From assembly GCA_046708705.1 (NCBI GenBank), contig JBKKDD010000090.1:1-46975 (forward strand): DNA of 46,975 bases, read 5' to 3'. Made by a program: the position numbers and the translations under genes. The notes beneath the pieces are model-generated. The model worked only from the letters and a program-made list of their open reading frames with translations, was not told the DNA's origin and ran no database searches. The number at the start of each line of letters is the position of its first letter. Position 1 is the first letter of the stretch. Of the stretch, positions 1 through 46,975 are shown in pieces. The DNA comes from Miltoncostaeaceae bacterium (lineage in GTDB: Bacteria; Actinomycetota; Thermoleophilia; Miltoncostaeales; Miltoncostaeaceae).

Positions 1-855
1 CTCCTTGACCGGCATCATCGCGCCGAGGTTGTCGAACGGGGTCGCACAAAGCGCCCACGTGCGGATCGCGTTCGCCGAAGCGGTACGGATCGACTCGGGC
101 TTGAGCTGGAACCGGTGCTGGCCGACCGTCTCGGGCCGTCCCATGGCACGGGCGGTCGCCTCGGTGACCTCCGACGGGAGGTAGGTGAGGTCCCACTTCG
201 TGCTCATGAGGTCCGGCTGCGTGATGAGACGGAGGTTCATCCGACCGTAGCGGGGGTCGCCGTAAAACGACGGCTTCGCGGGAAGCTCAGCGTCGTCGTA
301 GCGGCCCGTTGCGGTGTGGATGAGGTAGCCACGACGCTCCAACGTGAAGTTGAAGTAGTCGTTGCCGAACCCACCGTACCCGTCGTCCTCCTTGCCACCG
401 TGCTCTTGGGTGATGATGTACGCGATCTTCTTCGGGAAACCGAAGGGCTCGCGGCCAGCGAACACGGCTGCGTCCTGCGTGAGGTACATGTACGGGTAGT
501 ACCCGGCGTAATAGGTGTTGCCGTCCCCAGCCTTGTGGCTTGCGGACACGGTGACGCCCATCTCGCCGTACGGACCGAGGCCCGTGTGGAGGTGGTCGAC
601 GTACCAGAACTCGACGACGTCGTCCTCGAGGTCCAGGCACTTGGGAAGGATGTGGTTCAGGTCCTTCTCGTCGCAACGATAGAAGAACGCAGACCAACGG
701 GAGTTGGTGTACGTCAGCGGAACAATGTCGTAGTCGACGAGCGGATCGGCGATACCCTGGGAGATGATGTCGCGCTTGTCACGATCGAGTGCAAGCGGCG
801 GCGCATCGCCCGAGTCGACCCACGGAACGCTGGTCACGTTGAGCTGTTGACCCAT
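1..855 (-). CDS. Acetoacetate decarboxylase (ADC) family protein, paralog A. Its 3' end runs off the window start and is completed by 46675..46839 if the sequence is circular.
   Basis: Absent from the ORF track because it is open at the window edge. My minus-strand translation from ATG 855 (RBS AAAGGAG upstream) reads MGQQLNVTSVPWVD...YYAGYYPYMYLTQDAAVFAGREPFGFPKK...FQLKPESIRTASANAIRTWALCATPFDNLGAMMPVKE. It is clearly paralogous to ORF 882..1907 and has the GFPKK lysine pair. The + ORF 115..861 is its antisense shadow. Confidence 0.8.
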   Translation of the reverse strand, partial: MGQQLNVTSVPWVDSGDAPPLALDRDKRDIISQGIADPLVDYDIVPLTYTNSRWSAFFYRCDEKDLNHILPKCLDLEDDVVEFWYVDHLHTGLGPYGEMGVTVSASHKAGDGNTYYAGYYPYMYLTQDAAVFAGREPFGFPKKIAYIITQEHGGKEDDGYGGFGNDYFNFTLERRGYLIHTATGRYDDAELPAKPSFYGDPRYGRMNLRLITQPDLMSTKWDLTYLPSEVTEATARAMGRPETVGQHRFQLKPESIRTASANAIRTWALCATPFDNLGAMMPVKE

Positions 856-7918: not shown

Positions 7919-9291
7919 GCGATGTCGGCAGCCCCTCGCGACCGCTCCGTGTCGCGATCGTCGGCTCCGGACCTGCGGGCTTCTACACCGCCGACCACCT
8001 GCAACGCCGCGACGGACTGGCGGTCCGCATTGACATGTACGACCGGTTGGCAACGCCATACGGGTTGGTGCGACTCGGGGTCGCGCCCGATCACGAGAAG
8101 ATCAAGTCGGTCACGAAGGTCTACGAGCGTGTCGCCGCCGACCCCGGCTTTCGGTTCTTCGGGTGTGTCGAGATCGGACGCGACCTGGTCGACGACGACC
8201 TGGCCCGCCATTACGACGCAGTTGTGCTGAGTGTCGGCGCACAGGTGGATCGGCGAATGGGGATTCCCGGGGAGGATCTGGCCGGCAGCATCTCCGCGAC
8301 CGACTTCGTCGCCTGGTACAACTCTCACCCCGACCACCGCGAGCTCGACGTGGATCTGTCGGTGTCGGATGCGGTGGTCGTCGGCAACGGCAACGTCGCC
8401 GTCGACGTGGCGCGCATCCTCGCGGCACGCCCCGAGGCGCTCGCGGTGACCGACATCGCCGCTCACGCTCTGGACAGACTGCGTGTCAGTGCGGTGCGCA
8501 CGGTGACCATGCTCGGGCGGCGCGGCCCGGCACAGGCGGCATTCACCCCCAAGGAGATCAGGGAACTCGGCGAGCTCGAAGGGGTCACCCTCGTCGTGGA
8601 TCCCGCCGACTTGGAGGGGATCGACGCGACGGGCGACGAGCACGCCGAACGGGTTCTGAACGCGCTACGCAGCGTGGCCGGCCGTGTCGCCGCAGCGGAT
8701 GAGCGCGTGATCGTGCTGCGGTTCCTGACCTCCCCGACAGCGCTTCGCGGTGACGGAAAGGTGCGCGAGGTGGCGGTCGTCGGCAACGAGCTGGTCATGC
8801 AGGACGGATCACTTCGCGCGCAGCCGACGGGGACCGTCGATGTCATCCCGGCGGGGCTCGTCCTTCGGGCCGTCGGATATCGCGGCGCGCCGGTCCCCGG
8901 GTATCCGTTCGACGAGCGCTCAGGTCGTATTCCGAATGTCGACGGGCGGGTTGTTGACGCGGAGGGAACGCCACTTGCCGGACGCTACGTCGCCGGATGG
9001 ATCAAGCGGGGTCCGCAAGGGGTCATCGGTACGAACAAGGCCGATGCGGGGGAGACCGTGGAACGATTGATGCAGGATCTCGCCGACGGCAGGCTGCCGC
9101 GCCCATCGCACCCCGATGTGGCCGCCGCCGCCGCGCTCGTCGGCGAGCGGGTGCCAGACGTGATCTCGTGGGGCGACTGGACGCGGGTTGACGCGCGCGA
9201 ACGGGAGCTTGGAATCGCTGAGGGACGACCCCGACGCAAGTTCTCGTCTGCCGAGGCGATCCTGACCTTTCTGCGCGACGCCTCGCCCTAG
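7915..9291 (+). CDS. NADPH-ferredoxin (adrenodoxin-type) reductase, FprA-like
   Basis: VAIVGSGPAGFYTADHL dinucleotide fold, GVAPDHEKIK motif, second GNGNVAVDVARIL fold. ATGA overlap with the cofE stop. Confidence 0.8.
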   Translation: MSDVGSPSRPLRVAIVGSGPAGFYTADHLQRRDGLAVRIDMYDRLATPYGLVRLGVAPDHEKIKSVTKVYERVAADPGFRFFGCVEIGRDLVDDDLARHYDAVVLSVGAQVDRRMGIPGEDLAGSISATDFVAWYNSHPDHRELDVDLSVSDAVVVGNGNVAVDVARILAARPEALAVTDIAAHALDRLRVSAVRTVTMLGRRGPAQAAFTPKEIRELGELEGVTLVVDPADLEGIDATGDEHAERVLNALRSVAGRVAAADERVIVLRFLTSPTALRGDGKVREVAVVGNELVMQDGSLRAQPTGTVDVIPAGLVLRAVGYRGAPVPGYPFDERSGRIPNVDGRVVDAEGTPLAGRYVAGWIKRGPQGVIGTNKADAGETVERLMQDLADGRLPRPSHPDVAAAAALVGERVPDVISWGDWTRVDARERELGIAEGRPRRKFSSAEAILTFLRDASP

Positions 9292-11141
9292 CCGACCGTC
9301 GCGAACGCGGGCCGTGGGTGGGGGATCTCGCCGTATACGGTCGTGCGTTGGCGGGGGATGCGCCCGGCATCACGGATGACCCGACAGAAATCATCTGGCG
9401 TTGCGAGCTGCCCGTGCGCGGCGCCCGCGGCGCGACTGATGTTCTCGTCCATGAGCGTTCCGCCGAGGTCGTTGCATCCGGCCGACAACAGCCGCCCGCC
9501 TCCGGTCAGGCCGAGCTTAACCCACGAGGCTTGGATGTTCGGGATCAGCCCGTCGAAGGCAATCCGCGCCACGGCGTGGATCAGGACAACCTCATCCCAG
9601 GTGGGTCCCGGGCGCGACCGGCCCTGCAGGTAGATGGGCGCGCCCATGTGCACGAACGGCAACGGCACGAACTCGGTGAACCCGCCGGTGCGGCGCTGAA
9701 TCTCTCGTGCGACCTCCAGGTGATTGGCCCATGAGGTTGGTCCGTCGATGTGGCCGAACATCAGCGTGTTGTTCGAACGAAGCCCCAGCTCGTGTGCGGT
9801 GATGTGCACCTCGGCCCACTGGGATGAGCGGATCTTGTCGGGGCACAGGTGCAGGCGCACCCCGTCGTCGAGGACCTCCGCCGCCGTCCCCGGGAGCGTT
9901 CCCAGCCCGGCGTCGCGCAGACGGGTCAGAAGCTCTCGGACCGACACGCCCGAGGTGTGGGCACCCTGCCAGACCTCCAATGCGGTGAACCCGTGCACGT
10001 GCATCTGCGGGAGCGCGGACTTGACGGCGTCGACGATCGCGACGTAGAAGTCCCCCGTGAAGTCCGGGTGAATGCCGCCTTGCAGGCAGACCTCGGTGGC
10101 GCCGAGCTCCCACGCCTCCACCGATCGGCGCACGACCTCGTCGATGGACAGCAAGTAGGGATCGCCTCGCAGGTTGAGGCTTTTCGGGCCCTTCGAGAAT
10201 CCACAGAAGCCACAGCGGAAGTAGCAGAGGTTCGTGTAGTTGATGTTGCGGTTGACGACATAGGTGACGGTGTCCCCGCAGACACGCTGGCGGATTTCGT
10301 CGGCAACCCAGGCGACCGCATCGACCTCGTCTCCTCGTGCGCGAAACAGGCGCTCGACCTCGTCCCGCGCGGGTGGTGTGCCGGCGAGAGAGCGCTCAAG
10401 GATTTCCTTGATGTCCGTTGCAAGGTGACCGATGCCCGCCGCCGCCGCGGCCTCGACCCACGCATGGTCGGGGAACTGCGCCGAAAGGCGTCGCGGCGGG
10501 ACCGGTGGCTCGAGATGCTTGCCGGGTGCCCAGGTGTAGCTCGGCCGGACGGTGCCCGAGCCGTCCAGTTGGTCCAACGCGGCTTTGAGCAGAGGGCGCG
10601 CGAGCGTGGAGCGCATGGCGTCGACGTCGATGCCGATCGGGAAGGGTCCACGCTCGACCAGCTCGACCGCGGCCGCGGTGCGCAGCGCCGCGACCTGGGT
10701 GTCGTCCCATGCAGGTACCACCAGATCGGCGGCGCCGCGGGCGATGGCCAGGAGCGCGTCGTCGAGGGTATCGGCGACGCACTGGGCGGACGTGTCGAGG
10801 CCCGGTAGGGCGCAGAGCGTCACCGCGTCGGGCAGCAGATCGGGTGTGGCGCGAAGAAACGGTGGCTGGACCCGTGCGACGGCGTCCAGGACCTGTTCCC
10901 GGCCGCCTGTGTGGCAGATCGTGATCCGCCACGCCGCCACCCCGCGTGTGGCGAGGGCATGGGCGCCATCGGGTCCGACGGCCCAAGCGGCGGCGGGCGC
11001 GTCCAGATCCACGCTCGCCACGGGAAGCTGTCCAGAGGCGAGCGCACCGGCGACGGTCGCGTCGGTGAACCCGGGCGCCTCGACCACGCGCGCGGGGACG
11101 CGCTCACCACGGCGCACGAACGTGACGCGACGGGTGCTCAT
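9288..11141 (-). CDS. cofH: FO synthase subunit 2 (CofH, radical SAM) with a ~240-aa N-terminal extension
   Basis: NYTNLCYFRCGFCGF radical-SAM cluster motif plus a CofH-like C-terminal body. Start ATG 11141 (MSTRRVTF) overlaps the cofG stop as ATGA. Confidence 0.8.
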   Translation of the reverse strand: MSTRRVTFVRRGERVPARVVEAPGFTDATVAGALASGQLPVASVDLDAPAAAWAVGPDGAHALATRGVAAWRITICHTGGREQVLDAVARVQPPFLRATPDLLPDAVTLCALPGLDTSAQCVADTLDDALLAIARGAADLVVPAWDDTQVAALRTAAAVELVERGPFPIGIDVDAMRSTLARPLLKAALDQLDGSGTVRPSYTWAPGKHLEPPVPPRRLSAQFPDHAWVEAAAAAGIGHLATDIKEILERSLAGTPPARDEVERLFRARGDEVDAVAWVADEIRQRVCGDTVTYVVNRNINYTNLCYFRCGFCGFSKGPKSLNLRGDPYLLSIDEVVRRSVEAWELGATEVCLQGGIHPDFTGDFYVAIVDAVKSALPQMHVHGFTALEVWQGAHTSGVSVRELLTRLRDAGLGTLPGTAAEVLDDGVRLHLCPDKIRSSQWAEVHITAHELGLRSNNTLMFGHIDGPTSWANHLEVAREIQRRTGGFTEFVPLPFVHMGAPIYLQGRSRPGPTWDEVVLIHAVARIAFDGLIPNIQASWVKLGLTGGGRLLSAGCNDLGGTLMDENISRAAGAAHGQLATPDDFCRVIRDAGRIPRQRTTVYGEIPHPRPAFATVG

Positions 11142-12334
11142 ACCGCCACCGGGTATCCGTCGAGGTCGGTGGCCCGATCGAGCCGGGGGCGAAGATGCGG
11201 CGACACCCACACATCGTCATGGACATACTCTGGATAGATCGTGAGACGTTCGCGCAACGCATATCCGGCCTCGGCACACAGCTGCCCGAGCTGCGCCAGA
11301 TCCGGCCACGGCGCCTCCGGGTTGATGTAGTCCGGGGTCAGCGGGGAGATCCCGCCCCAGTCGTTGATGCCACTCACCAGAAGCGGACCGTAGTCGGCAG
11401 AGAGGTTCGGCGGCGCCTGGATGTTCATGGTGGGTCCGAACACGAGGCGCGTGATCGCGCATGCGCTCATCAAGTCGATCAAGCCCGGCTCACCGGCTTG
11501 GCCCATCGGCGTGTCGGGCTTGGCGCGGAAGTTCTGCACGATCACCTCCTGGATGTGCCCGAACTCCTCGTGCAGGTCGCGCAGCGCAAGCAGCGCCTCG
11601 ATTCGTTCGCGGGGAGTCTCGCCGATGCCGATGAGGATGCCGCTCGTGAACGGGATCGCGAGCTCGCCAGCCTTACGGATCATGGCAAGGCGTGTGGCCG
11701 GTCGCTTGTCGGGCGCGTGCTCGTGGGGTCCGCCGGGAGCGCACAGGCGCTCGGCCACCGACTCGAGCATGATGCCCTGGCTGGGTGCGACCTCCCGCAG
11801 CTCGGCGAGTTCCCGCCACGAGAGCACCCCGGCGTTGGGATGAGGGAAGAGCCCAGTCTCCTCGAGCACGATGCGACACATCGCGACCAGGTATGAGTGC
11901 GTGGACTCATGGCCCCAGCGGCGCAGGCGTTCGCGATATGCGGGCCAGCGCACCTCTGGGCGGTCGCCCAAGCAGAACAGGGCCTCCTTACAGCCGAGCT
12001 CGGCGCCGTCGCGGCACACCGCCAGCACCTCATCCGGGCTCATCGTGTGGGCGCGAGGAGCGTCCTCGTCTTGGGCGAACGTGCAGTAGCTGCACACGTC
12101 TCGACAGAGGTTGGTCAGTGGGATGAACACCTTGGGCGAGTATGTGACCCATGCGCCGTGGCCGCGGTCGCGCAGGGTCGCCGCGGCGGCCCACAACGCC
12201 GGATGCTCGGCTCCGCGGGCATCCGCCAGCGCCAGCGCCTGCGACGCAGTGAGCCGCTCGCCGTCCAGGGCGGCCTCGACGGCCGCGCGGATGTGCGGGC
12301 GAAGGCTCGTCAGATCGGGGGTGTGCGTGCTCAT
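11138..12334 (-). CDS. cofG: FO synthase subunit 1 (CofG, radical SAM)
   Basis: LTNLCRDVCSYCTF radical-SAM motif, 398 aa, directly upstream of and coupled to cofH. Confidence 0.85.
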   Translation of the reverse strand: MSTHTPDLTSLRPHIRAAVEAALDGERLTASQALALADARGAEHPALWAAAATLRDRGHGAWVTYSPKVFIPLTNLCRDVCSYCTFAQDEDAPRAHTMSPDEVLAVCRDGAELGCKEALFCLGDRPEVRWPAYRERLRRWGHESTHSYLVAMCRIVLEETGLFPHPNAGVLSWRELAELREVAPSQGIMLESVAERLCAPGGPHEHAPDKRPATRLAMIRKAGELAIPFTSGILIGIGETPRERIEALLALRDLHEEFGHIQEVIVQNFRAKPDTPMGQAGEPGLIDLMSACAITRLVFGPTMNIQAPPNLSADYGPLLVSGINDWGGISPLTPDYINPEAPWPDLAQLGQLCAEAGYALRERLTIYPEYVHDDVWVSPHLRPRLDRATDLDGYPVAV

Positions 12335-16109: not shown

Positions 16110-17456
16110 TCAGGAGCGACGCGGCGGGCGTCCGTCTGCGTCGGCAAGCTCCGGGTGCCAGCGGCGAAAGTGCTCGTGGTGCTGTGGGGTGAGGGCGCCG
16201 GGCGGGTAGTGCTCCTCATAGAAGTCCGGATCGACGTGCTGGGCCTGACAGGTCAGGCGCTGGTACATCGGGTCGATGTAGGCGGGGAAGCGCCCATAGG
16301 TGTCGTGCACGTACTGGCAGTAGTCCTTGACGCGGTCGATCGTCGCCTGGTCGGGTCGCTGGATGTGGCGGATGATCTCGTCGGGCGCGGTATAGGCCTT
16401 GGGTTTGTCCGCGTCGTACTGCGACCACTTGACCGCGAGAAACGCATCCACCGCTTCGTGCATGTTGGCGTAGTACGGGGGCGTGAACGCCTCGTAGATG
16501 CCGTCACGGCCCACCGGGGCGCTCGGTCCGCGTACGGCGTCGGCGAACCGGAATCCCAGACCGGCGACGTCCATGCCGCCCAGCACGAACCGGGCGATGT
16601 ACCCGGTGTAGGTCCACCCGCCGAGTCCCAGGCACTGAAGCGCCAGGTTCAGGTTGTGGCAGATGAACGCCTGCTCGACGACCTGCATGGAGAGGACCCG
16701 CTGCTCCAGGTCGATCATTCCCATCTGGCGGACCGGGTCGCAGTCGCCGGAGTCGATCCACTTCTGAAGACCCGCCGAGGCATATCCGGCCTGCTCGTCG
16801 ACGATCGAGAACTTGTACTCGGGCGACAGGTAGATGAACAGCAGGTTGATGTACTCGAGGGTCATGTTCGACACCGGCACGAACAGCGTCGAGCCGGGCT
16901 TGTTGGCGTTCCAGTGGTTGAACACGAACAGGCCAGGGAGTCCGGTGGGAAGCTCGGCGCGTGAATCCGAAAGCCGTACCTTGGCGCGGTTGGTGAGCTC
17001 CAGGACCTTCTCCACCTGCGCCTCGATCGACTTGCCGGACAGAGTGGAGATCTCACCCGGTTCGGGCAGCAGCTTCCACATGTCGAGGAAGAACAACCCG
17101 TCGTCGTTCGTGAAGAACAGCTCGGTGCCGTGGTTGGAGCACGACGACGGCCATGTGCGCGCCGTCCACTGTACGAGCGCGTCGGCGCCCTGGGTCGGGT
17201 CGATGTCGGCCAGGTTGAGGCCGTTGAGGCCGGTGGCAGCCATCAAAAGCAGCGCCTCTTCGGCTTCTGACAGCGGGATCGGCTCGTACGGGCTGGTGTA
17301 GGCGAGCGGCCCGGTCGTGATCTCCATACCCAGGGCCACACGACGGCTCTTTCGGTCCCACACCGCCTGGAAGAACGGGTAGTTGAGCCCGTCGATGACC
17401 CCTTCGGGGTTGTCGACGAGGCTGGCGAGGGCGGGGTTTGACGGGGGCGGGTTCAC
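16110..17456 (-). CDS. Large nitroreductase-fold protein (two-lobed, SagB/ThcOx-like by eye), function unknown
   Basis: WDRKSRRV...PLSEAEEALLLMAATG and FICHNLNLALQCLGLGGW resemble nitroreductase-superfamily signatures. GTG start overlaps the ACAD stop (GTGA). Confidence 0.5.
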   Translation of the reverse strand: MNPPPSNPALASLVDNPEGVIDGLNYPFFQAVWDRKSRRVALGMEITTGPLAYTSPYEPIPLSEAEEALLLMAATGLNGLNLADIDPTQGADALVQWTARTWPSSCSNHGTELFFTNDDGLFFLDMWKLLPEPGEISTLSGKSIEAQVEKVLELTNRAKVRLSDSRAELPTGLPGLFVFNHWNANKPGSTLFVPVSNMTLEYINLLFIYLSPEYKFSIVDEQAGYASAGLQKWIDSGDCDPVRQMGMIDLEQRVLSMQVVEQAFICHNLNLALQCLGLGGWTYTGYIARFVLGGMDVAGLGFRFADAVRGPSAPVGRDGIYEAFTPPYYANMHEAVDAFLAVKWSQYDADKPKAYTAPDEIIRHIQRPDQATIDRVKDYCQYVHDTYGRFPAYIDPMYQRLTCQAQHVDPDFYEEHYPPGALTPQHHEHFRRWHPELADADGRPPRRS

Positions 17457-19441: not shown

Positions 19442-20926
19442 GTGCGCGTTGTGATCGCCGGTGCCGGCACAGCCGGGTGCGTGTTGGCTGCGCGCCTGAG
19501 CGCCGATCCCGCCGTCGAGGTCGTGCTATTGGAGGCCGGGCCGCACTACCGGGCCGGGTCCTGGCCGGCGGCGCTGTCGCATTCGCATCGGGTCATCCGG
19601 GAGACCCACGATTGGGGCTATCACGCCCAGGCCGGGGCGTCGCCGCGGCTGGTGCACGTGCCGCGCGGACGGGTGGTCGGAGGGTCGTCGATCACCAACG
19701 GCGCGATCGCGCTGCGCGGACGCCCTGAGCACTATGACGAGTGGGACGCTTACGTCGACGGGTTCGGCTGGGACACCTGGCTGCCATGGTTTCGCGCAAT
19801 CGAGCGCGATCTACAATTTCCGGAAACGCCATGGCACGGCGACGCTGGCCCGATCCCGATCAGCCGGTATCCGCGGGAGCGGTGGTTTGCCCTGATGGAG
19901 CGCTTCGCCGAGGCGGCATTCGCGCGCGGACACGTCTGGATTGAGGACCACAATCAGCCGGGGGTGGTCGGGATCGGCCCCACGCCGTTCAACATGATCG
20001 ACGGCGTGCGTCAAACCCCTGCCGACCACTACCTGGATCCGGCGCTCGGGCGTCAGAACCTGACGCTCGTGTCCGGGGTCACCGTCGATCGGATTCTCAT
20101 GAGCGGATCGGCGGCGGTCTGCGTCGAGGCGATCGACGAGGCTACGGATGCCCGCCAACGCTACGAAGCCGACGAGGTGCTCATCACGCTCGGCACCTAC
20201 GCGAGCCCCGCATGCCTTTTACGCTCGGGGATCGGACCACCCGAGGAGATCGTCTCGCACGGCATCGACCTGCGGCATGAGCTTCCGGGGGTGGGGCGGG
20301 GGATGCAGGATCACCCCAAGATCGGATACCGGTTCTGGATCGACACGGACGCACCGCCCTGGCCGAACCCGTGGATCCAGGCGCTTCTGACCGCCAATGC
20401 CGAGGTGGCGGGCGAACCCCGCGCCTACCAGGTGATGCCCTACTCGGGCACCGTCGAGGCCGGTCACCGTTTCACCGACCTGAACGTCCAAGTGGCCGAC
20501 GCGCGCGGACGACGCGGCAGCGTCACCATTCAGGGTCGCGACCCCCGACTTCAGCCGGTGCTGCGGATGGGATGGCTCGAGGCCGACGGCGATCGTGACG
20601 TGGCGGTGGCGGCGGGGCGTGAGGTGATGGCGCTCGCCCGGACGAAACCGTTGGCCGACGTGCTGCACCCCTGGCCGAACCAGGACGATCCGGATCAGCC
20701 GCTTCGCACCGTCGAGACCTTCCACCATCCGGTGGGGACATGCCGCATGGGCCGGGCGGACGATCCGACGGCGGTCGTCGATGCATCCGGCCGGGTGATC
20801 GGGCTTGACGGCCTCTCGGTGATCGATGCGTCGATCATCCCGCGGATCCCCTCCGCGAACACGCATCTGTGCGTCATCGCGCTGGCCGAACGTCTTGCCG
20901 CGAGGAGGCGGGCGGATCGCCACTGA
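19442..20926 (+). CDS. GMC-family FAD oxidoreductase (choline dehydrogenase-like)
   Basis: GTG 19442 gives VRVVIAGAGTAGCVLAARLS. C-terminal HPVGTCRMG and IPRIPSANTH motifs. The upstream part of ORF 19214.. overlaps the SDR gene and is not coding. Confidence 0.85.
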   Translation: MRVVIAGAGTAGCVLAARLSADPAVEVVLLEAGPHYRAGSWPAALSHSHRVIRETHDWGYHAQAGASPRLVHVPRGRVVGGSSITNGAIALRGRPEHYDEWDAYVDGFGWDTWLPWFRAIERDLQFPETPWHGDAGPIPISRYPRERWFALMERFAEAAFARGHVWIEDHNQPGVVGIGPTPFNMIDGVRQTPADHYLDPALGRQNLTLVSGVTVDRILMSGSAAVCVEAIDEATDARQRYEADEVLITLGTYASPACLLRSGIGPPEEIVSHGIDLRHELPGVGRGMQDHPKIGYRFWIDTDAPPWPNPWIQALLTANAEVAGEPRAYQVMPYSGTVEAGHRFTDLNVQVADARGRRGSVTIQGRDPRLQPVLRMGWLEADGDRDVAVAAGREVMALARTKPLADVLHPWPNQDDPDQPLRTVETFHHPVGTCRMGRADDPTAVVDASGRVIGLDGLSVIDASIIPRIPSANTHLCVIALAERLAARRRADRH

Positions 20927-21064
20927 GTCCGCTGGAGACCCACACCAAAACCGACATAAGTCTGTTTTGCGTGCGCAGACGGCGGCGGAGCGACCTCGCC
21001 TCGGTTTTCCGTACACGGTCTGTAGTAGCCTCGCGATGTGGCGCTTGTCGCCACGATATGCCAA

Positions 21065-21156
21065 CCGCTGGGGGTGCCGTACATCGGCTGAGAGCCCCGC
21101 CCGTGACCGGGGCGACCCCAGAACCTGATCTCGGTAATGCGAGCGGAGGGAAGCGG
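21065..21156 (+). promoter_or_regulatory. TPP (THI-box) riboswitch
   Basis: CUGGGGGUGCC...GGCUGAGAG...ACCCCAGAACCUGAUCUCGGUAAUGCGAGCGGAGGGAAGCGG matches the THI element. P1 pairs CCGCU (21065..21069) with AGCGG (21152..21156). The SD GGAGGGA lies in the 3' part of the aptamer, just before ATG 21158. Confidence 0.85.
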
Positions 21157-21157
21157 A

Positions 21158-21457
21158 ATGATCGTCGAGATCCAAGTGTTGCCGACCCCGGCAGGAAACG
21201 ACACCGATCACTGGGCGCACGTCGACGCCGCGATCGGCGTCGTCGCGCAGAGCGGTCTGATGTATGAGGTCGGCCCGCTCGGCACGACCTTTGAAGGCGA
21301 TGCCGATCTGGTGTGGGACACCGTCCGACGCGCCCACGAGGCTGCGCTCGCGCACGGCGTCGCACAGGTCGTCACCGTGGTCAAACTCCTGGAGTCGCAC
21401 GACGGGAGCCCGACCATGGACGCGCTCACCGCCGCCCACCGTCCGACCGCCGATTGA
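21158..21457 (+). CDS. MTH1187/YkoF-family thiamine(-precursor)-binding protein
   Basis: MIVEIQVLPTP...HVDAAIGVVAQSGLMYEVGPLGTTFEGD is typical of DUF77/YkoF. Immediately downstream of the TPP riboswitch. The earlier ATG 21137 lies inside the aptamer. Confidence 0.75.
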   Translation: MIVEIQVLPTPAGNDTDHWAHVDAAIGVVAQSGLMYEVGPLGTTFEGDADLVWDTVRRAHEAALAHGVAQVVTVVKLLESHDGSPTMDALTAAHRPTAD

Positions 21458-21462
21458 GCACG

Positions 21463-22245
21463 ATGACCGCCGCTCGCTCCCTCCTGGTCCGCGCGCTCCC
21501 GCCACTTGCGCTCCTCGCCGCGCTCATTGGGGTCTGGGAGGTCTGGGTGCGTCTCGCAGACATCGACCCGGCGGTGCTCGCGCCGCCGAGTCGCGTCGCC
21601 GGCGCGCTCGTCGACACCGCCGACATTCTCGCCGGACACGCGGGGACGACCCTGGCCGAGACCGCCATCGGCCTTCTCATCGGAACGTTCGTCGGTCTCG
21701 GCGCCGCGGTGCTCGTCGCGCTGTGGCCGATCGCGCGACGTGCCGTGGAGCCGCTTTTGGTCGTCCTCCAGACGATTCCACCCGTCGTGCTTGCACCCAT
21801 CCTCGTCTTGGCATTGGGCTTCGGATGGGCGCCGCGAATCGTCGTCGTCGTTCTGATCGTGTTCTTCCCGGTTGCCATCGCCGCATCCGGAGCGTTTTTG
21901 ACGGTCGACCGAGATCGGGTCGACCTTGTCTGCGCGTTCGGCGGGACCCGCTCCGACGTGCTTCGCCATGTGACGCTCCCCGCGGCGCTTCCCGCCGTGT
22001 TCGACGGGATCCGTATCAGCGCCGCCTACGCGGTCGCGGGCGCCGCGATCGCCGAGCAGATCGGTGGCGCCAGGTCGGGACTCGGCCTGTACATCGTGCG
22101 CTCCCAGCGGAGCTTTCGCACCGATCAGGTCATCGCAGGCGTCGTCGTCATCGCCGTGCTGTCCCTCGCCGTCTATGCCCTGGTCACCGTCGTCGCCCGA
22201 CACGCGACGCCGTGGCTCGTCCACACGACAAGGAAGGCCTCATGA
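21463..22245 (+). CDS. ABC transporter permease (NitT/TauT family, ThiX-like)
   Basis: MTAARSLLVRALPPLALLAALIGVWEVW, six-TM profile, in the riboswitch-controlled operon. Confidence 0.8.
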   Translation: MTAARSLLVRALPPLALLAALIGVWEVWVRLADIDPAVLAPPSRVAGALVDTADILAGHAGTTLAETAIGLLIGTFVGLGAAVLVALWPIARRAVEPLLVVLQTIPPVVLAPILVLALGFGWAPRIVVVVLIVFFPVAIAASGAFLTVDRDRVDLVCAFGGTRSDVLRHVTLPAALPAVFDGIRISAAYAVAGAAIAEQIGGARSGLGLYIVRSQRSFRTDQVIAGVVVIAVLSLAVYALVTVVARHATPWLVHTTRKAS

Positions 22246-23264
22246 AATCCCACCGTGCACGCGCTCGTCTGATCATTGCGACCCTCGTAGCACTCACGGG
22301 CGTAGGCATCGGTGCAATCGGATGCGGCGGTGACGACACCGGGACATTCGCGGCCCAGAAAGTCACAGTAGTCCTGGACTGGACCCCCAACACCAACCAC
22401 GCCGGCGTCTACCTTGCGCGCGCGCAAGGAATGTACGAGCGTGCCGGTCTCGACGTCGAGATTATCGAGCCGGGTCAGGACGGGAGCATCGCGCCGGTGA
22501 TGGCAGGCAGGGCGCAGATCGCGTTCTCCTACGCCGAGCAGGTTCTGCCGCTTCGTGCGCAAGGCACGCCGGTCGTCTCACTCGCGACCGTTCTGCGTAC
22601 GAACACGTCATCGCTGATGTCTCCCACCGATCGGCGCATCACCCGCCCGCGCGATCTCGCGGGCATGACCTACGGCACCTTCGGCGGACCGATCGAGGAA
22701 CCCCTGATCAAGGCGCTCGTCGCCTGCGACGGCGGCGATCCCGACCGCGTCAGGTTCGTCGAGGTGGGGAACGCCGACTACAACATCGGGTTTCGCAAGC
22801 GCGCCTACGACGCAGTATGGGTCTTCGACGGGTGGGATGTCATCCGGCTGCGCGAGCTCGCAAAAACGCCTGTCACCACGATCCCGTTCCGCGACCACCT
22901 GGACTGCATCCCCGACTGGTACACCCCGGTGATCACAACTAGCGAGGCCGTTCTGCGCGACCAGCCGCAACTCGTGCGCACGTTCCTCGCCGCGACCGCC
23001 GAGGGCTACCGCATGGCCGCGATCGACCCGCAAGCGGCCGCCGAGGCGCTCATCGCCGGTGCACCCGAATCCGACCGTGCGCTCGTCGAGCGTTCCGCAC
23101 GGTTCCTGGTCCCGTTCTACGCGACCGCTCCGGGCGCCTGGGGACGTCAGGATCCTGCCGTGTGGCGCAGGTTCGATGCTTTCCTTCGCACGGCGAAGAT
23201 CATCACCTCCCCCTCCCCCGTCGACGACGCGTTCACGAACGCATACCTGCCGCCGACGCAGTGA
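22242..23264 (+). CDS. ABC transporter substrate-binding lipoprotein (NMT1/THI5-like, ThiY-like)
   Basis: MKSHRARARLIIATLVALTGVGIGAIGCGGDD lipobox. LDWTPNTNHAGVYLA motif is typical of NMT1/ThiY-type binding proteins. ATGA overlap with the permease stop. Confidence 0.75.
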   Translation: MKSHRARARLIIATLVALTGVGIGAIGCGGDDTGTFAAQKVTVVLDWTPNTNHAGVYLARAQGMYERAGLDVEIIEPGQDGSIAPVMAGRAQIAFSYAEQVLPLRAQGTPVVSLATVLRTNTSSLMSPTDRRITRPRDLAGMTYGTFGGPIEEPLIKALVACDGGDPDRVRFVEVGNADYNIGFRKRAYDAVWVFDGWDVIRLRELAKTPVTTIPFRDHLDCIPDWYTPVITTSEAVLRDQPQLVRTFLAATAEGYRMAAIDPQAAAEALIAGAPESDRALVERSARFLVPFYATAPGAWGRQDPAVWRRFDAFLRTAKIITSPSPVDDAFTNAYLPPTQ

Positions 23265-24004
23265 CCGGCAGAGTTGCCGTGGCGAATCTGTGCCACGACT
23301 ACGGCGCCCTGCCGGTCCTCCGCGGCATCCGGTTCATGACCGACCCGGGCACGTTCACCGTGATCGTGGGCCCCACCGGGTGCGGCAAGTCGACGATCCT
23401 GCGCGTGCTCGCCGGCCTCGTCGTCCCGACATCGGGCACCGTCACCGTCGACGCACGTTCCGTGATCGGATCCCCGGGATCATGTGTCTACATGCCCCAA
23501 GGCGACACGTTGCTCCCCTGGCGCCGTGCCCGCGACAACGCGCTCCTCGGTGCCCGCATCGCAGGGCACGACATGACACGGGTCCACGAACGTGCAAATG
23601 AGTTGTTCACACGGTTCGGGTTGGCTGGGTTCGAGGACGCCTGGCCGTCGCAGCTGTCCGGGGGAATGCGCCAGCGTGTCGCCCTGCTGCGCACGGTCCT
23701 GGCCGCGCACCCGGTGGTGCTCTTGGACGAGCCATTCGCCGCGCTCGACGCGATCACTCGCGCCGACCTGCAAGGGTGGTTGTCCGATCTACTGGACGCC
23801 GCACCGCGCACCACCGTCCTGGTCACTCATGACATCGACGAGGCACTTCGGCTCGCCGACGAGATCATCGTCATGTCCGCCCGGCCCGGACGGATCATCG
23901 CCCACATCGGCGTGGATGTCCCACGCCCGCGTCCCGCGTTACAGATCACCAACCCGTATTTCACATCGATGAAACGTCGAATTCTGGGGTCCCTCGGGCA
24001 GTGA
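23261..24004 (+). CDS. ABC transporter ATP-binding protein (NitT/TauT family, ThiZ-like)
   Basis: GTG 23261 overlaps the previous stop. Walker A GPTGCGKST, signature LSGGMRQRVAL, Walker B VLLDEPF. Confidence 0.85.
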   Translation: MTGRVAVANLCHDYGALPVLRGIRFMTDPGTFTVIVGPTGCGKSTILRVLAGLVVPTSGTVTVDARSVIGSPGSCVYMPQGDTLLPWRRARDNALLGARIAGHDMTRVHERANELFTRFGLAGFEDAWPSQLSGGMRQRVALLRTVLAAHPVVLLDEPFAALDAITRADLQGWLSDLLDAAPRTTVLVTHDIDEALRLADEIIVMSARPGRIIAHIGVDVPRPRPALQITNPYFTSMKRRILGSLGQ

Positions 24005-24018
24005 GGACCCAGTAGTCT

Positions 24019-24447
24019 TTGGATGTGTCGTCTGTCGCATACTCATGGGAGTTCACGCTCCTTCGTCGACTTCCGGGAGCAGGAAAGGCCCGCGTCGCCG
24101 GACGACTGGTCATCCAGGCGGCAAGCGCTGCCGACGCCCGCCGCGAGGCGCTCACCGAGCTCGCGAAGCGCCGCGATCGTGACTCGCGCTGGTCGCTGGG
24201 TGTGCTCAAGCCCCTCACCCCGCAGGCGCCCGGGACGAACCTCTTTGCCGTGACGTTTGCCGTCTGGGAGGCCACCGACGACCGCTTCCTGCGTCGCGAC
24301 GTCCACACCAGCGAGGTGTGGGCCGAAGACGCGGGCGCGGCACGGCGCATCGCTCAGCAGGACATCCAGGCGACGGAACTCTACGATCCGTCGTGGCGTA
24401 TCCGCCAGGTCGTACGCGCTCCGCGGCGCAGGCGGAAGCGCAGCTGA
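24019..24447 (+). CDS. Hypothetical protein (142 aa) with an internal duplication and a basic tail
   Basis: No recognised family. Coding-like composition and tight packing between flanking genes. Two similar segments (RLVIQAASAADARREALTEL and SEVWAEDAGAARRIAQQDI). Confidence 0.45.
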   Translation: MDVSSVAYSWEFTLLRRLPGAGKARVAGRLVIQAASAADARREALTELAKRRDRDSRWSLGVLKPLTPQAPGTNLFAVTFAVWEATDDRFLRRDVHTSEVWAEDAGAARRIAQQDIQATELYDPSWRIRQVVRAPRRRRKRS

Positions 24448-36875: not shown

Positions 36876-37178
36876 GTGAAGGACGTCGAGCCCATCTATG
36901 ACCAGGCAACTGACACCCTCAAGGCGATCCGAAAGGGTCACCCATCAGCGTCGGCTGTGACCAACACGAAGGGTGTCACAGTGTTCTTTGACCCCGACAC
37001 GAACGAGGTCCTGGGGTACCAGATCCCGAACTTCACCGCCTACTACGAGGCGAACAAACTGCCCGACGGAAGCTATGACGTCGACCTTCCCACCCGGGTT
37101 CCTGTGAACCTCGAGGAGGAGATGGACTTCGACGAGGAGCAGCTTCGCTCGGGCGTCCGCATTGCCGAGTTCTACTAG
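36876..37178 (+). CDS. Small DUF2283-like protein with an acidic C-terminal half (paralog 1)
   Basis: GTG start with RBS GAAGGAG. IYDQATDTL...VFFDPDTNEVLGYQIPNF...YDVDLP. Paralogous to 39370..39654. Confidence 0.6.
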   Translation: MKDVEPIYDQATDTLKAIRKGHPSASAVTNTKGVTVFFDPDTNEVLGYQIPNFTAYYEANKLPDGSYDVDLPTRVPVNLEEEMDFDEEQLRSGVRIAEFY

Positions 37179-39231: not shown

Positions 39232-39369
39232 CCGGCATTCCTCTCGTTCGTCGCGATACTCTCGAAGTCCCTGCGTTTCCCCGTGAGAGTAACAACACCT
39301 GCCGGAGGAGCCATCGTGGCCACATCACCCCCCCCGCCCGACCGCCCATCGTTCGCCGAGGAGAACGCC

Positions 39370-39654
39370 ATGCGGGTGGCGAGTGAGTCGCTCAACTACT
39401 ACGACCAGCACAGCGACACCTACCACTGCTCGTATGGACCCCCCTCCCCCGCGCTGACGATCCGAGACCCGGAGCGAGAGCTTCTCGTGCGTGTCGATCC
39501 GCAATCGGGACAGGTCCTTGGTTTCACGATCCCGGAATTCAAGGGCTGGCATGCCCGCCACGCCGACGAGGATGGCGGCTTCGAGGTGGACCTGCCGCCG
39601 GTGTGGCCGCTCCAACCCGGCTCCGAGGAGTCGACCGATCTGGACGACGAGTAG
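39370..39654 (+). CDS. Small DUF2283-like protein with an acidic C-terminus (paralog 2)
   Basis: C-terminal part of ORF 37531..39654. ATG 39370 with GAGGAG RBS (alternative GTG 39316 with GGAGGAG). YYDQHSDTY...[18 protein letters not shown]...FEVDLP parallels 36876..37178. Confidence 0.6.
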
Positions 39655-43418: not shown

Positions 43419-43691
43419 GGGTAAGCCGCTCGCGGCAAAGCACCGTGATCAGGGTACGCCGCTCGCGCCCGCGCACTCGCCCACATCGCGACCCTGGTTC
43501 TCGACTCGCGGACCGGGGTAAGGGACTCGCACTTGCTTGTGGCTCACGGGGGTATGCGACTCGCGCATGGCTACGGAACCGGGGTATGCGACTCGCGACA
43601 CTCGCTCGTCGTCCCCGTGTGACCGGGGTATGCGACTCGCGGCGGCACGGGGGTATTCGACTCGCGCCCACCGGGGTACCAGGCTCGCGGC
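43419..43691 (+). repeat. Iteron array (8 good copies plus 1 degenerate) of a ~17-18-bp repeat, consensus GGGGTAWGCGACTCGCG
   Basis: GGGTA cores at 43419, 43452, (43495 degenerate), 43516, 43550, 43582, 43626, 43651 and 43674. Spacings are 33, 43, 21, 34, 32, 44, 25 and 23 bp, close to multiples of 11. The first and last copies are each followed by CAAAGCNCNGTGATC. Confidence 0.85.
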
Positions 43692-43733
43692 AAAGCCCTG
43701 TGATCCTTCTCGCAGAAACGGGTCTCGAGCGTC

Positions 43734-43777
43734 GTTAAGTATCAGTTGTTAAGGGAAAAGCCAGTTTCATATCATTC
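43734..43777. other. AT-rich segment (candidate DNA-unwinding element of the origin)
   Basis: GTTAAGTATCAGTTGTTAAGGGAAAAGCCAGTTTCATATCATTCA is about one-third GC against a ~68-70% GC background. It contains GTTAAG twice and lies between the iteron array and rep. Confidence 0.55.
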
Positions 43778-43778
43778 A

Positions 43779-43829
43779 GGGGTGCGCTCTCGCCCCTTCC
43801 CCTTCGGGGTCGGGCGCACCCCATTTTTT
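43779..43829 (+). terminator. Long GC hairpin plus T-tract (intrinsic-terminator-like) inside the origin region
   Basis: GGGGTGCGC...(inner CCCCttccccttcGGGG)...GCGCACCCC followed by ATTTTTT. Confidence 0.55.
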
Positions 43830-43846
43830 CCTGCGAGTCAGCTACC

Positions 43847-43864
43847 CGGGGTAAGTAACTCGCA
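43847..43864 (+). repeat. Isolated iteron copy just upstream of rep (candidate autoregulatory operator)
   Basis: GGGGTAAGTAACTCGCAG matches the iteron consensus, 18 nt before ATG 43882. Confidence 0.6.
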
Positions 43865-43881
43865 GTCTCGAACCACGACAC

Positions 43882-44868
43882 ATGCGCTCAGGCATGCTTC
43901 GAGCCAAGATGCCTCTTCGTCCACTCACCGTCGCGACCACCGACGAATCAGGGCTCACGGGGATCCAAGAGCAGCTCGCGCTCGTGGAGCCCGACAACCT
44001 GCGACGGCTGGAGCAGCCGTTACGGTGGGGTTTCGCGGATCGCTCGACTGCCCGGAAGGGACTCGAGATCGCCGCCGGGTTCGCGATCGCGGATCGACTG
44101 GGCGCGATCCGCCAGACGCAAGGCCCGGCAATTGGCCGCCATGGATACATGCTGATCGTGTGGCTCGGTTCCAGGTGGTTACAGCTCGAGCAACACGGCG
44201 CCACAGCGGTGCCGTTCAGCCAGTACCGGCTTTTGCACGACTTTGGGTGGGGGAATGCCGGGAAGCCTGCTCGCCAGGCACTCAAGCGTACCCTGTTGGG
44301 ACTCCAGGAAGCGCGGTGGGAAGGCGAGGTCAACGATGCCTTGACCGGTCGCAAGACGCATGAAGATCACTTTGGCATCATCGACCGGGTACTCTGGCCG
44401 ATCGCACCGAACGGCAGGACCGAGCGGCCCGGCTATATTTTCCTCGGCAGCTGGTTTTTGGAGCAGCTTCGCAACGAAGCCGGGGAGTGGCTCGATTGGG
44501 CGATCGTACGCGACCTTCCCCCGATTGCCCGGAAGTTCTATGGGTTGCTCGAAAACGACCGGTTCGTTTCGCGCGACAGCACGCATGAGTGGCAGGCCTA
44601 CACGCTGGGCGCGCCGCTGTTTGCAACACTGGGGTCGAGCTGTACCAGAGAACGCGACAACGTCGCCGCGGTGTTGCGCGCCTGCGAGGCGATCTGTGCA
44701 CTCGATCCGCGCTACAGGTTCACGCGTGAGCGAACACTCGACGCCCGAAACGGCTGGGTCAACCAGGTTGTCGTGAGCCGAACGGCGCGACGGCGCGTCG
44801 GTCCGCGCTCGTCGGGGCATCGTCCCCCGGGACTTTCTGCTCAGGTGAGCTCCGTAGCCAACGAGTGA
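43882..44868 (+). CDS. Putative plasmid replication initiator (RepA, 'replication initiator protein A'-like)
   Basis: Sits next to the iterons and AT-rich segment. The segment HGYMLIVWLGSRW...VPFSQYRLLHDFGW...GKPARQALKRTLLGLQEARWEG resembles the RPA-family pattern (by eye only). Exact start is uncertain. Confidence 0.55.
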   Translation: MRSGMLRAKMPLRPLTVATTDESGLTGIQEQLALVEPDNLRRLEQPLRWGFADRSTARKGLEIAAGFAIADRLGAIRQTQGPAIGRHGYMLIVWLGSRWLQLEQHGATAVPFSQYRLLHDFGWGNAGKPARQALKRTLLGLQEARWEGEVNDALTGRKTHEDHFGIIDRVLWPIAPNGRTERPGYIFLGSWFLEQLRNEAGEWLDWAIVRDLPPIARKFYGLLENDRFVSRDSTHEWQAYTLGAPLFATLGSSCTRERDNVAAVLRACEAICALDPRYRFTRERTLDARNGWVNQVVVSRTARRRVGPRSSGHRPPGLSAQVSSVANE

Positions 44869-45358
44869 GGTCGGGCATGGGGGTATCGGTGTGACGCACG
44901 GCCGGGTTGAGTGCATGACGGACGGCCTCTGCGCTCGCACCGGCCCAGCCGTTCGCCGCGACATCGGTGAGGAGCATCGCGATGCCGATCCGCACGAGGG
45001 TGGCGCGCTCGAGGTCGCGGAGCCCCACGGGATCGTGAGAGCGCCACTCGGCGACGACGTGATCGAGCCCGTCCAGGGTCTCCTGCGCCATGCGCATGTG
45101 CAAGCGCCCGCCAACCGGTACGACCGGACGGGTGTTGCCGCGCTCGGGTGCCACGGCGACCGGCACATAACCACGTGCGGACACCGACGCCTGCGTTTCG
45201 TCATGACGCGGCCAGGGCGTCGAGGATGATGTTCGCGGTGTGGCCGGCGTGGAGGAACTTGGCGACGATGAGTCGCTGTCGCGTGTGAAGCGAGCGGCCT
45301 CGACAGCAAGCTTGGCGAGGGCCCCGTCGCGGGCGGCAGAGGCCGAGTGACTAGACAT
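44759..45358 (-). CDS. Putative centromere-binding partition protein (ribbon-helix-helix, ParG-like) with an S/T/P-rich N-terminus
   Basis: The ATG overlaps the parA stop (CATGTCTAG). The segment GGRLHMRMAQETLDGLDHVVAEW looks like an RHH strand plus helix. The 3' end overlaps the rep 3' end by ~110 nt, so the true stop or frame is uncertain. Confidence 0.45.
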   Translation of the reverse strand: MSSHSASAARDGALAKLAVEAARFTRDSDSSSPSSSTPATPRTSSSTPWPRHDETQASVSARGYVPVAVAPERGNTRPVVPVGGRLHMRMAQETLDGLDHVVAEWRSHDPVGLRDLERATLVRIGIAMLLTDVAANGWAGASAEAVRHALNPAVRHTDTPMPDLTRWLRSSPEQKVPGDDAPTSADRRAVAPFGSRQPG

Positions 45359-46145
45359 GGAGCACCTCGCGACTTGCGGTCAAGACCTCGTCGCAGACGA
45401 GGTCCCAGACATACTGCAGATGGTCGTCGAGCGCGTCGACACCGACGCGTTGTGAGGCGGCCTGCCGGTATGCGACCCGCTTGGCGATGACCTGATCGAA
45501 TACCGGCCACGGCGCCCCGGCGCGAAGCGCGTCGGCGGTCGCGCGGGCATCGACGGTGTGGAGCTCGGCAAGGGTCAACAGGATCCCGAGGACGCGAAGA
45601 TCGGGGTTCAGTCGGTGGCGAACCTCGGCGAGATGGCGGGCGAGCTTTGCGAGGCCCTCCAAGGCGTAGATCTCCGGCGGACACGGCACGAGCACCTCAT
45701 CGGCAGCAACCCAGGCGTTCGTCGCGATCAGGTCGAATCCCGGAGCGGTATCGATGATGGCCAGGTCGTAGTCGTTGTGAATCGGCGCGAGCGCCTCGCG
45801 AAGCAACTGCTCGCGTCCAGAGACGTTCAGCAGCACGGCCGCATCATCATCGAGCGTCGCCTCCGCGGGGATCAGGTCGCCACAGTCGACCATGCTGGTG
45901 CGGGGCTGATCGAGGACTGCCCGAAGCATTTGCTCGTCCAACTGCATCGCGGCTGCCGCGCGCAGCAGGGCCGAGAGCCCGATAGCGTCCGGATGAGCGC
46001 CGGCATGGCGTGACAGGTGCGCCTGGGGGTTCGCGTCGATCGTCACGACGCGGCAGCCTGCCCGGCGCGCCGCTGCGGCGAGGTTGATGACGGTCGTCGT
46101 CTTCCCCACCCCACCCTTCTGATTACTGACTGCGATGGTCCTCAT
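45351..46145 (-). CDS. parA: ParA/Soj-family partition ATPase
   Basis: Internal ATG 46145 with RBS GGGAGAG. MRTIAVSNQKGGVGKTTT deviant Walker A, IIDTAPG, 264 aa. The upstream 122 aa of ORF 45351..46511 are non-coding-like. Confidence 0.9.
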   Translation of the reverse strand: MRTIAVSNQKGGVGKTTTVINLAAAARRAGCRVVTIDANPQAHLSRHAGAHPDAIGLSALLRAAAAMQLDEQMLRAVLDQPRTSMVDCGDLIPAEATLDDDAAVLLNVSGREQLLREALAPIHNDYDLAIIDTAPGFDLIATNAWVAADEVLVPCPPEIYALEGLAKLARHLAEVRHRLNPDLRVLGILLTLAELHTVDARATADALRAGAPWPVFDQVIAKRVAYRQAASQRVGVDALDDHLQYVWDLVCDEVLTASREVLHV

Positions 46146-46674
46146 TGCGATCTCTCCCTGCGCTGGTGAGGCTGTGCCGGTCTGCCACATCTTCGCGGCC
46201 TGCTGCGCGAGTCCTGCCCAGCTCCTGCAGCTCGTGTCGGCCAGAGCTGGCGGTGGCCCGGAACCTCTGCATGACCGCCTGTGCATCCATGCACGGACGA
46301 CGAGGCCCCTGCTCGTGTGGCATGCCGTTCGACGTTGACCATGCGTACTCCACATCATGGTGCCGAGGTGCAGAGCAGCGCATCCCCATGCTGAGCAGCG
46401 GTGCACATGCAGCGCAACACGTCTTTGCCACAGGGGGCCGGGCCATTCGCGGCGGCTGATCGAAACCGAAGGAGGACTCTGCGCGCCGGCGACCTTCGTC
46501 TGGCCGACCACATTCGTGAGACAACGATGCGTTCAGGGAGCCCCGGAGTGGGGGACGGAGGCCATGGACAGCACGCTCGAGGGCCCACTCTTCGGGGCCA
46601 CGACGCCAACGCGGCTGGGCCGGTATCCCCGAAGGATCCGGCCCGAACCGCGCTGTCGCCTGTGAAGCTTGGGG

Positions 46675-46975
46675 CTAGACGCCCGGGGGCTTCGGGAAAC
46701 GGTGACGCATCGTGTACTGGTACGGAGTGGCGAACAGCAGGTCGCCGATGTCCTCCGGGGTACGCTCGATGGTCTGCGTCCAGATGGTCTGGGCGCCGGG
46801 GATGATGAGGTCGAAGCTGAAGGTCATGAGACCAATGAGCTCCTTGACCGGCATCATCGCGCCGAGGTTGTCGAACGGGGTCGCACAAAGCGCCCACGTG
46901 CGGATCGCGTTCGCCGAAGCGGTACGGATCGACTCGGGCTTCAATTGGAACCGGTGCTGGCCGACCGTCTCGGGC
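46675..46975 (-). CDS. 3' portion of an ADC-family gene (continuation of paralog A if circular, or a second copy)
   Basis: ...FQLKPESIRTASANAIRTWALCATPFDNLGAMMPVKELIGLMTFSFDLIIPGAQTIW...RHRFPKPPGV stop. The reading frame is open to the window end. 46840..46975 repeats 1..136. Confidence 0.8.
   Translation of the reverse strand, partial: PETVGQHRFQLKPESIRTASANAIRTWALCATPFDNLGAMMPVKELIGLMTFSFDLIIPGAQTIWTQTIERTPEDIGDLLFATPYQYTMRHRFPKPPGV
46840..46975. repeat. Terminal direct repeat: 46840..46975 matches 1..136 (133/136 identical)
   Basis: Direct base-by-base comparison at an offset of 46839. Mismatches occur only at window positions 103, 105 and 106 versus 46942, 46944 and 46945. Confidence 0.95.

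Follow-up and report, generated by a model that had tools for sequence, protein, structure and literature searches.

The window analysed here is a stretch of 46,975 nucleotides (the whole of contig JBKKDD010000090.1, from a Miltoncostaeaceae bacterium) that begins and ends inside an ADC-like gene, and whose first and last 136 bases are almost the same. This arrangement raises the question of whether the molecule is a circle whose contig overran its own start, a larger replicon that carries the gene twice or a linear genome with repeated ends, and of what the few differences between the two terminal copies represent. On comparison with relatives, together with the internal evidence, circular closure is favoured: the window is very probably one complete contig of a circular plasmid of ~46,839 bp, and its overlap would have caught a co-existing allele of the gene in which the contig was broken.

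Bases 1-136 and 46840-46975 agree, in the same orientation and flush with both contig ends, at 133 of 136 positions, and the mismatches are confined to positions 103, 105 and 106 (G, G and C in the start copy vs C, A and T in the end copy). A sequence-only reading of this DNA had described a 136-nt direct repeat with three clustered synonymous differences, as the sequence comparison confirms. When end-overlap lengths from 20 to 399 nt were scanned, 136 alone gave a mismatch of 10% or less. Just two other exact repeats of at least 20 nt occur in the window, a 35-mer shared by the two ADC paralogs and a 20-mer within the iteron array, and the terminal repeat is therefore not a product of chance; no further copy of the end-copy sequence was found anywhere in the window. 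The presence of the same sequence at both ends, as in DTR contigs, is the standard sign for calling a contig circular and complete. In common with DTR circular contigs from metagenome and isolate assemblies, the window has ends that repeat and that restore continuity when joined, and its terminal repeat is very probably the untrimmed overlap of a circular contig, an ordinary assembly signature. Unlike plain DTR contigs, the overlap is inexact, with its three mismatches, and 136 is not a usual k-mer size. A mismatch-bearing overlap of this kind is unlike the exact k-mer overlap of common de Bruijn assemblers, and its inexactness and unusual length thus indicate that it is not a plain k-mer overlap and that it probably also records a variant.

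Joining positions 46675-46839 to 1-855 on the minus strand produces an ORF of 1020 nt, encoding 339 residues plus a stop codon. Both of the claims that had been made for this gene, that the joined ends restore it uninterrupted and that the two repeat copies lie in the same minus-strand ADC-like frame, stand: the ORF is intact and has the same length as its closest full-length homologues, and translation and the Pfam family PF06314 (ADC, acetoacetate-decarboxylase family) agree on the frame, the joined ADC_a and its neighbour ADC_b both matching this family. In a protein search with the joined ORF, the closest full-length homologues (P0001 and P0002) are likewise of 339 aa, with 89% and 87% identity, respectively, at 100% coverage; the exact joined protein was absent from the protein collection searched. 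The ATG of ADC_a is preceded by an AAGGAG ribosome-binding site and lies 26 nt after the ADC_b stop codon. Within the 3′ part of the gene, positions 46675-46839 are unique sequence and the remainder is the redundant overlap. The features on which the argument draws are collected in the table.

Table. Features of the window at and around the contig ends (positions on the forward strand)
Feature	Position	Strand	Remarks
Terminal direct repeat, start copy	1..136		Allele CAGCTC (gene strand) at 101-106, common to most relatives
Terminal direct repeat, end copy	46840..46975		Allele CAATTG (gene strand) at 46940-46945
ADC_a 5′ part, codons 1-285, cut by contig start	1..855	-	91% aa identity to M. oceani ADC_a; PF06314
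ADC_a 3′ part, last 100 codons including stop	46675..46975	-	Same M. oceani gene as window start
ADC_b, paralog, 341 aa	882..1907	-	Directly upstream of ADC_a, same orientation; PF06314
35-nt exact repeat between paralogs	46799..46833 = 1003-1037		Inside unique sequence beside overlap
Iteron array, putative replication origin	43419..43863		10 copies of GGGTANNNNNCTCGC: 8 direct plus inverted pair beside rep
rep, replication initiator gene, 328 aa	43882..44868	+	Adjoins iteron array
199-aa ORF, candidate centromere-binding partner	44759..45358	-	Overlaps parA stop; candidate role from position only
parA, partition ATPase, 264 aa from internal ATG	45351..46145	-	Pfam AAA_31 4.6e-41, CbiA

The strongest external comparison is provided by a closed plasmid of the same family. 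A megablast search of the first 4 kb of the window against 72,556 PLSDB plasmids returned a single match, plasmid unnamed2 of Miltoncostaea oceani SCSIO 61214 (NZ_CP064358.1; L001 in our set), a closed circle of 46,598 bp; positions 44000-46975, searched in the same way, returned no match. From 1 to 46839 the window follows one colinear order on unnamed2, running from 44466 to its end and then from its start to 44600, with ~36 kb alignable at 67-85% nucleotide identity and 37 of the 44 annotated unnamed2 CDS found by tblastn in the same circular order. Both window ends fall within one gene of the reference (window 46628-46974 corresponding to 44253-44600 of unnamed2, and window 1-846 to 44466-45311), which, coupled with the colinearity, identifies the window as a circular permutation of the closed plasmid, broken inside ADC_a. 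The non-redundant length, 46,839 bp, is less than 250 bp off that of the reference. The two plasmids have in common the ADC pair, a TRAP transporter, cofC/D/E/G/H, acyl-CoA and thiolase genes, an ilvB-like gene and CbbQ/VWA, as well as orthologous Rep proteins (71.7% aa identity) and the same iteron motif between VWA and rep. They differ in that the window is without the IS3 and IS481 elements and the DMT, HTH and PPIase genes of unnamed2, carries a different ParA module on the opposite strand (neither the unnamed2 ParA nor its downstream ORF had a tblastn match in the window at 1e-8), and has in addition a 3.1-kb block encoding a TPP-riboswitch-controlled ABC transporter and a gene of 448 codons, both absent from unnamed2. 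A literature search on Miltoncostaea returned no report of its plasmids. The mildly novel element is the replicon itself, which adds a second complete representative to a plasmid family that has seldom been sampled; among the 72,556 PLSDB plasmids, unnamed2 alone has a match to its Rep.

The junction itself is found intact in other assemblies. Sixteen independent metagenome or MAG contigs cross the point at which 46839 meets 1 without a break. The junction-crossing set comprises L002-L017 and L020-L021, with L018 and L019, of unrelated context, counted apart; fifteen of its members (L003-L017) were found by exact-pattern scans, using one probe of 46 nt for the junction and another of 35 nt for the variable site, and the alignments of all fifteen pass through the join without interruption. 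A protein of 270 aa (P0007), encoded by a further, separate JGI contig (L002; 1,240 nt), spans the join and is 100% identical to the joined ADC_a protein; this contig can be aligned gap-free with the joined DNA over 844 nt (96.1% identity), and the differences within its ORF are silent at the protein level, the start codon excepted. Longer contigs place both neighbourhoods of the join on one molecule. In L013, the join is preceded by 7.2 kb with VWA, the iterons, rep and par and followed by 5.4 kb with ADC_b and TRAP, and L004 and L006 also carry both neighbourhoods. Of two long-read-style ENA contigs, L020 (44,004 nt) retains matching gene order for ~10 kb on each side of the join, whilst L021 (45,991 nt) carries the side with ADC_b, TRAP and cof and continues through the join. 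In every relative in the junction set there is a single ADC_a gene, flanked by the sequences of the two window ends.

These relatives bear directly on an alternative that had been raised from the sequence alone, namely that two genomic copies of the gene bracket an integrated plasmid. In a broader form, the repeat would be real, a plasmid-like element having inserted into a larger replicon between two full or partial copies of ADC_a. Direct repeats flanking a rep/par unit are formally compatible with such an arrangement, and in one distant relative, L018 (74.5% nucleotide identity), the ADC pair is found in a non-plasmid context. Despite this, integration is very improbable. The window equals a closed circular plasmid gene for gene and in size, the 16 contigs show a single uninterrupted gene with the window ends as its neighbours, no tRNA was found in the window, and no integrase was present among the window genes matched by homology or among the ORFs scanned against families. 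Furthermore, divergence between the copies that is exclusively silent implies that both alleles come from intact, selected genes and not from truncated copies. The integrated alternative is disfavoured by the uninterrupted gene of the relatives and the lack of a tRNA.

The replication and partition functions expected of a plasmid lie close to the contig end. The sequence-only reading had placed an iteron origin, rep and parA near this end, and they were found 0.8-3.5 kb from it. The motif GGGTANNNNNCTCGC occurs 10 times in the window, where 0.11 occurrences would be expected, and every one of these lies inside the array. It is also clustered upstream of rep in L001, L004, L005, L013 and L020, with six copies in unnamed2 (L001) at the homologous place between VWA and rep. 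The identity between the window Rep and the unnamed2 protein annotated as 'replication initiator protein A' extends over 87% of the protein, and the latter is the only match to the window Rep in PLSDB. The window Rep had no Pfam hit, RPA (PF10134) being absent even at E ≤ 10, and no NCBIfam hit, whilst its M. oceani ortholog scores 27.0 bits against PF10134, which equals the cut-off of that family; the family placement of this Rep consequently rests on orthology. ParA also matches NCBIfam ParA_partition (7.5e-31, under the curated cut-off) and PHROG 164, 'ParA-like partition protein', and the 199-aa ORF beside it had no family match in Pfam, NCBIfam or PHROG. The partition region (44759-46660) differs from that of M. 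oceani, and L013 shares the window version up to 46144.

Like iteron-controlled theta plasmids of the RK2, F and pPS10 types, the window has tandem repeats of 15-19 nt directly upstream of rep, an inverted pair at the rep promoter side, a Walker-type ParA nearby and a switch in GC skew at the array. Unlike those plasmids, its Rep is without significant similarity to characterised Rep families. An iteron-type theta replicon, with initiation through Rep-iteron binding, is thus a putative assignment, to which position (repeats beside rep) and composition (the skew minimum) lend support. When the cumulative GC skew of the 46,839-bp circle is detrended, it is lowest at the iterons (44.0 kb) and highest at 21.2 kb. 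These extremes are 22.8 kb apart on a circle of 46.8 kb, that is, on opposite sides, a pattern that fits bidirectional replication of a circle from the iterons; it is taken as supporting evidence only, since gene-strand bias could contribute to it. The complete circle of ~46,839 bp, plasmid or chromid, that had been proposed from the sequence is therefore backed by the synteny with unnamed2, the 16 junction contigs and the GC-skew extremes.

Terminal direct repeats are a hallmark of some packaged phage genomes, and multimers of iteron plasmids occur. The window could in principle be a linear genome (of a phage or a linear plasmid) with true terminal direct repeats, or a piece of a head-to-tail multimer that carries two alleles. 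The repeat, however, is located within a conserved metabolic gene, which would be interrupted in a linear molecule, and the gene content is metabolic together with rep and par. Only ParA, of the four backbone proteins tested, matched a PHROG, and a pattern scan of a viral contig collection did not find the junction. No inverted seed of at least 15 nt was present between the first and last 300 nt, which speaks against a linear plasmid, and the GC skew fits a circle replicated from the iterons. Reading the ends as those of a linear or multimeric molecule is thus extremely improbable.

If the window is a circle, there remains the matter of why its two terminal copies differ. On the gene strand, the start copy reads CAG CTC and the end copy CAA TTG, which encode Gln-Leu in both cases; the synonymous nature of this change, already read from the sequence, is confirmed by translation. 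CAGCTC is carried by the start copy and by 13 of 17 related sequences (L001-L017), CAGCTG by L001, L003 and L009, and CAGTTG by L007. CAATTG belongs to the end copy alone and was found in none of the ~20 related sequences examined. The four hexamers, in the order CAGCTC, CAGCTG, CAGTTG and CAATTG, form a chain of single silent steps and, as the intermediate alleles are observed in relatives, CAATTG could be reached by such steps. Just 2 of the 27 substitution combinations at the three positions keep Gln-Leu, and random clusters of three changes in 4 nt, placed anywhere in the overlap, are silent 0.19% of the time. These odds make random error unlikely and give both alleles the appearance of selection on an intact gene. 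The second copy is thus most likely a real co-existing allele rather than a sequencing error, and the 'strain-level microvariation' of the sequence-only reading is plausible, given a silent change with intermediate alleles in relatives.

The origin of the cluster can be narrowed to some extent. Three independent hits within 4 nt of a 136-nt overlap have P ~1e-3; independent point mutations were for this reason set aside, and the cluster more likely reflects a single short patch of change or a path through an allele that is more diverged. Strains that are 95-96% identical in ADC_a differ largely by small silent multi-base clusters. The two copies agree over the other 132 nt of the overlap, whereas a strain ~4% diverged would be expected to show further differences; this agreement requires either that the variant be very close apart from a short patch or that the path taken through the assembly graph be a mosaic. 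Gene conversion from ADC_b was rejected as the source of CAATTG, as ADC_b encodes Gln-Val at this place. Avoidance or gain of restriction sites was also rejected: CAATTG and CAGCTG are palindromes, and both hexamers are near expectation in number (2 observed vs 3.8 expected and 12 observed vs 11.3 expected, respectively).

A competing account accepts the circle and ascribes the three differences to an artefact of assembly, polishing or sequencing at a low-coverage contig end. It draws on the absence of CAATTG from the relatives, on the identity of the rest of the overlap and on the place of the variant, which lies 30 nt from the contig end, contig termini being the least reliable parts of an assembly. 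This account nevertheless leaves the silence of all three changes to chance, with the odds given above both for random clusters and for the given positions, and it concerns a hexamer that is polymorphic in relatives, in which the stepwise intermediates CAGCTG and CAGTTG are present. On balance, an artefact is unlikely. The contig stops exactly 30 nt past the last mismatched base of the end copy, and in an assembly graph of k=31 a variant branch would end 30 nt after the last variant base, as the contig does; this is an unproven hint. Against such a signature, the contig start is left unexplained, with the variant lying 102 nt in and 102 identical bases preceding the cluster.

The paralogous pair offers a further perspective on the break. 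The 35-nt repeat shared by ADC_a and ADC_b ends 6 nt before the terminal overlap and encodes the conserved LIGLMTFSFDLIIP / LLGLMTFSFDLIIP region; the paralogs are otherwise ~70% identical in nucleotide sequence. This 35-mer is a likely source of assembly-graph ambiguity at the ADC locus. Related contigs often end inside ADC_a or ADC_b and, with its shared 35-mer, its contig breaks and its mosaics in short contigs, the locus is generally hostile to assembly. The mosaics are ADC_b/ADC_a proteins from short JGI or ENA contigs (P0128, P0130 and P0133). P0130, for instance, follows ADC_b over its first 40 residues (97% identity) and ADC_a thereafter (80-97% identity). Such proteins are either natural recombinants of the tandem paralogs or chimeric assemblies that arose from shared k-mers. 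The ADC_b-ADC_a pair is also present in L018 (JGI Ga0452209_002238; 45,096 nt) at 8959-11017, the context of which does not look like that of a plasmid: it includes a phage-integrase fragment, a methyltransferase, a large PKD-repeat protein and glycyl-radical enzyme genes. The occurrence of the pair in so different a context suggests that it moves as a unit.

Taken together, the explanation that we favour is as follows. The host would be a Miltoncostaeaceae-like actinobacterium of the class Thermoleophilia, and the molecule a circular plasmid of ~46,839 bp. The assembler would have walked once round the circle and run 136 nt past its own start inside ADC_a, so that those 136 nt were written twice; the real molecule would possess one copy of the repeat and one intact ADC_a gene of 339 codons. 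Most likely, two plasmid alleles co-existed among the reads, and the contig end would have followed the minor allele, CAATTG, whilst its start carries the common CAGCTC. The reality of the variant in the population and the route by which the assembler came to the overlap are the parts of this explanation that we infer. A wider joint reading would take the two alleles as real heterogeneity of one plasmid in the population (perhaps even inside individual cells, or in the form of a hetero-allelic multimer), the site as recurrently polymorphic across the family and the window as the first uncultured member, complete in sequence, of a Miltoncostaeaceae plasmid family that is widespread in the environment and has F420 biosynthesis genes of its own; as a whole, this combination is decidedly unlikely.

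Beyond the junction, the remaining cargo of the plasmid has several features of its own. A full set of coenzyme F420 biosynthesis genes (cofD, cofC, cofE, cofH and cofG) occupies positions 5584-12319, beside acyl-CoA, thiolase, OB-fold, aldehyde dehydrogenase and TPP-enzyme genes, and is conserved with the M. oceani plasmid and L020. The block that is absent from unnamed2 (20895-24042) contains a TPP riboswitch (RF00059) at 21060-21168 on the plus strand, scoring 71 bits vs a gathering score of 54.3, followed downstream by an ABC permease (21313-22245), an NMT1/THI5-like binding protein (~22245-23264) and an ABC ATPase (23162-24004). The block has the look of an insertion that encodes a transporter for thiamine or one of its precursors. 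The ORF of 448 aa (16110-17456, minus strand) has a strongly coding composition, with a GC3 of 0.88, and had no match in Pfam, NCBIfam or PHROG; it is located within a stretch of 1.4 kb that has no alignable counterpart in the M. oceani plasmid, where a small HTH gene occupies this place. Two small paralogous hypothetical genes on the plus strand (36876-37178 and ~39316-39654), neither of which matched a Pfam family, flank the ilvB-like TPP enzyme and are homologues of M. oceani hyp3 and hyp4; hyp3 matches the second site too, with 38% identity.

The terminal overlap reveals no new mechanism, and its consequences are chiefly ones of annotation and of sampling. Once its last 136 nt have been trimmed, the window can serve as a single, complete replicon of 46,839 bp, and the split ADC gene is to be annotated as a single intact gene and not as two fragments or a duplication. 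Fragments of this plasmid family occur in many sediment and soil metagenomes, and a second complete representative could aid both binning and the study of plasmid-borne F420 and acyl-CoA metabolism in Thermoleophilia.
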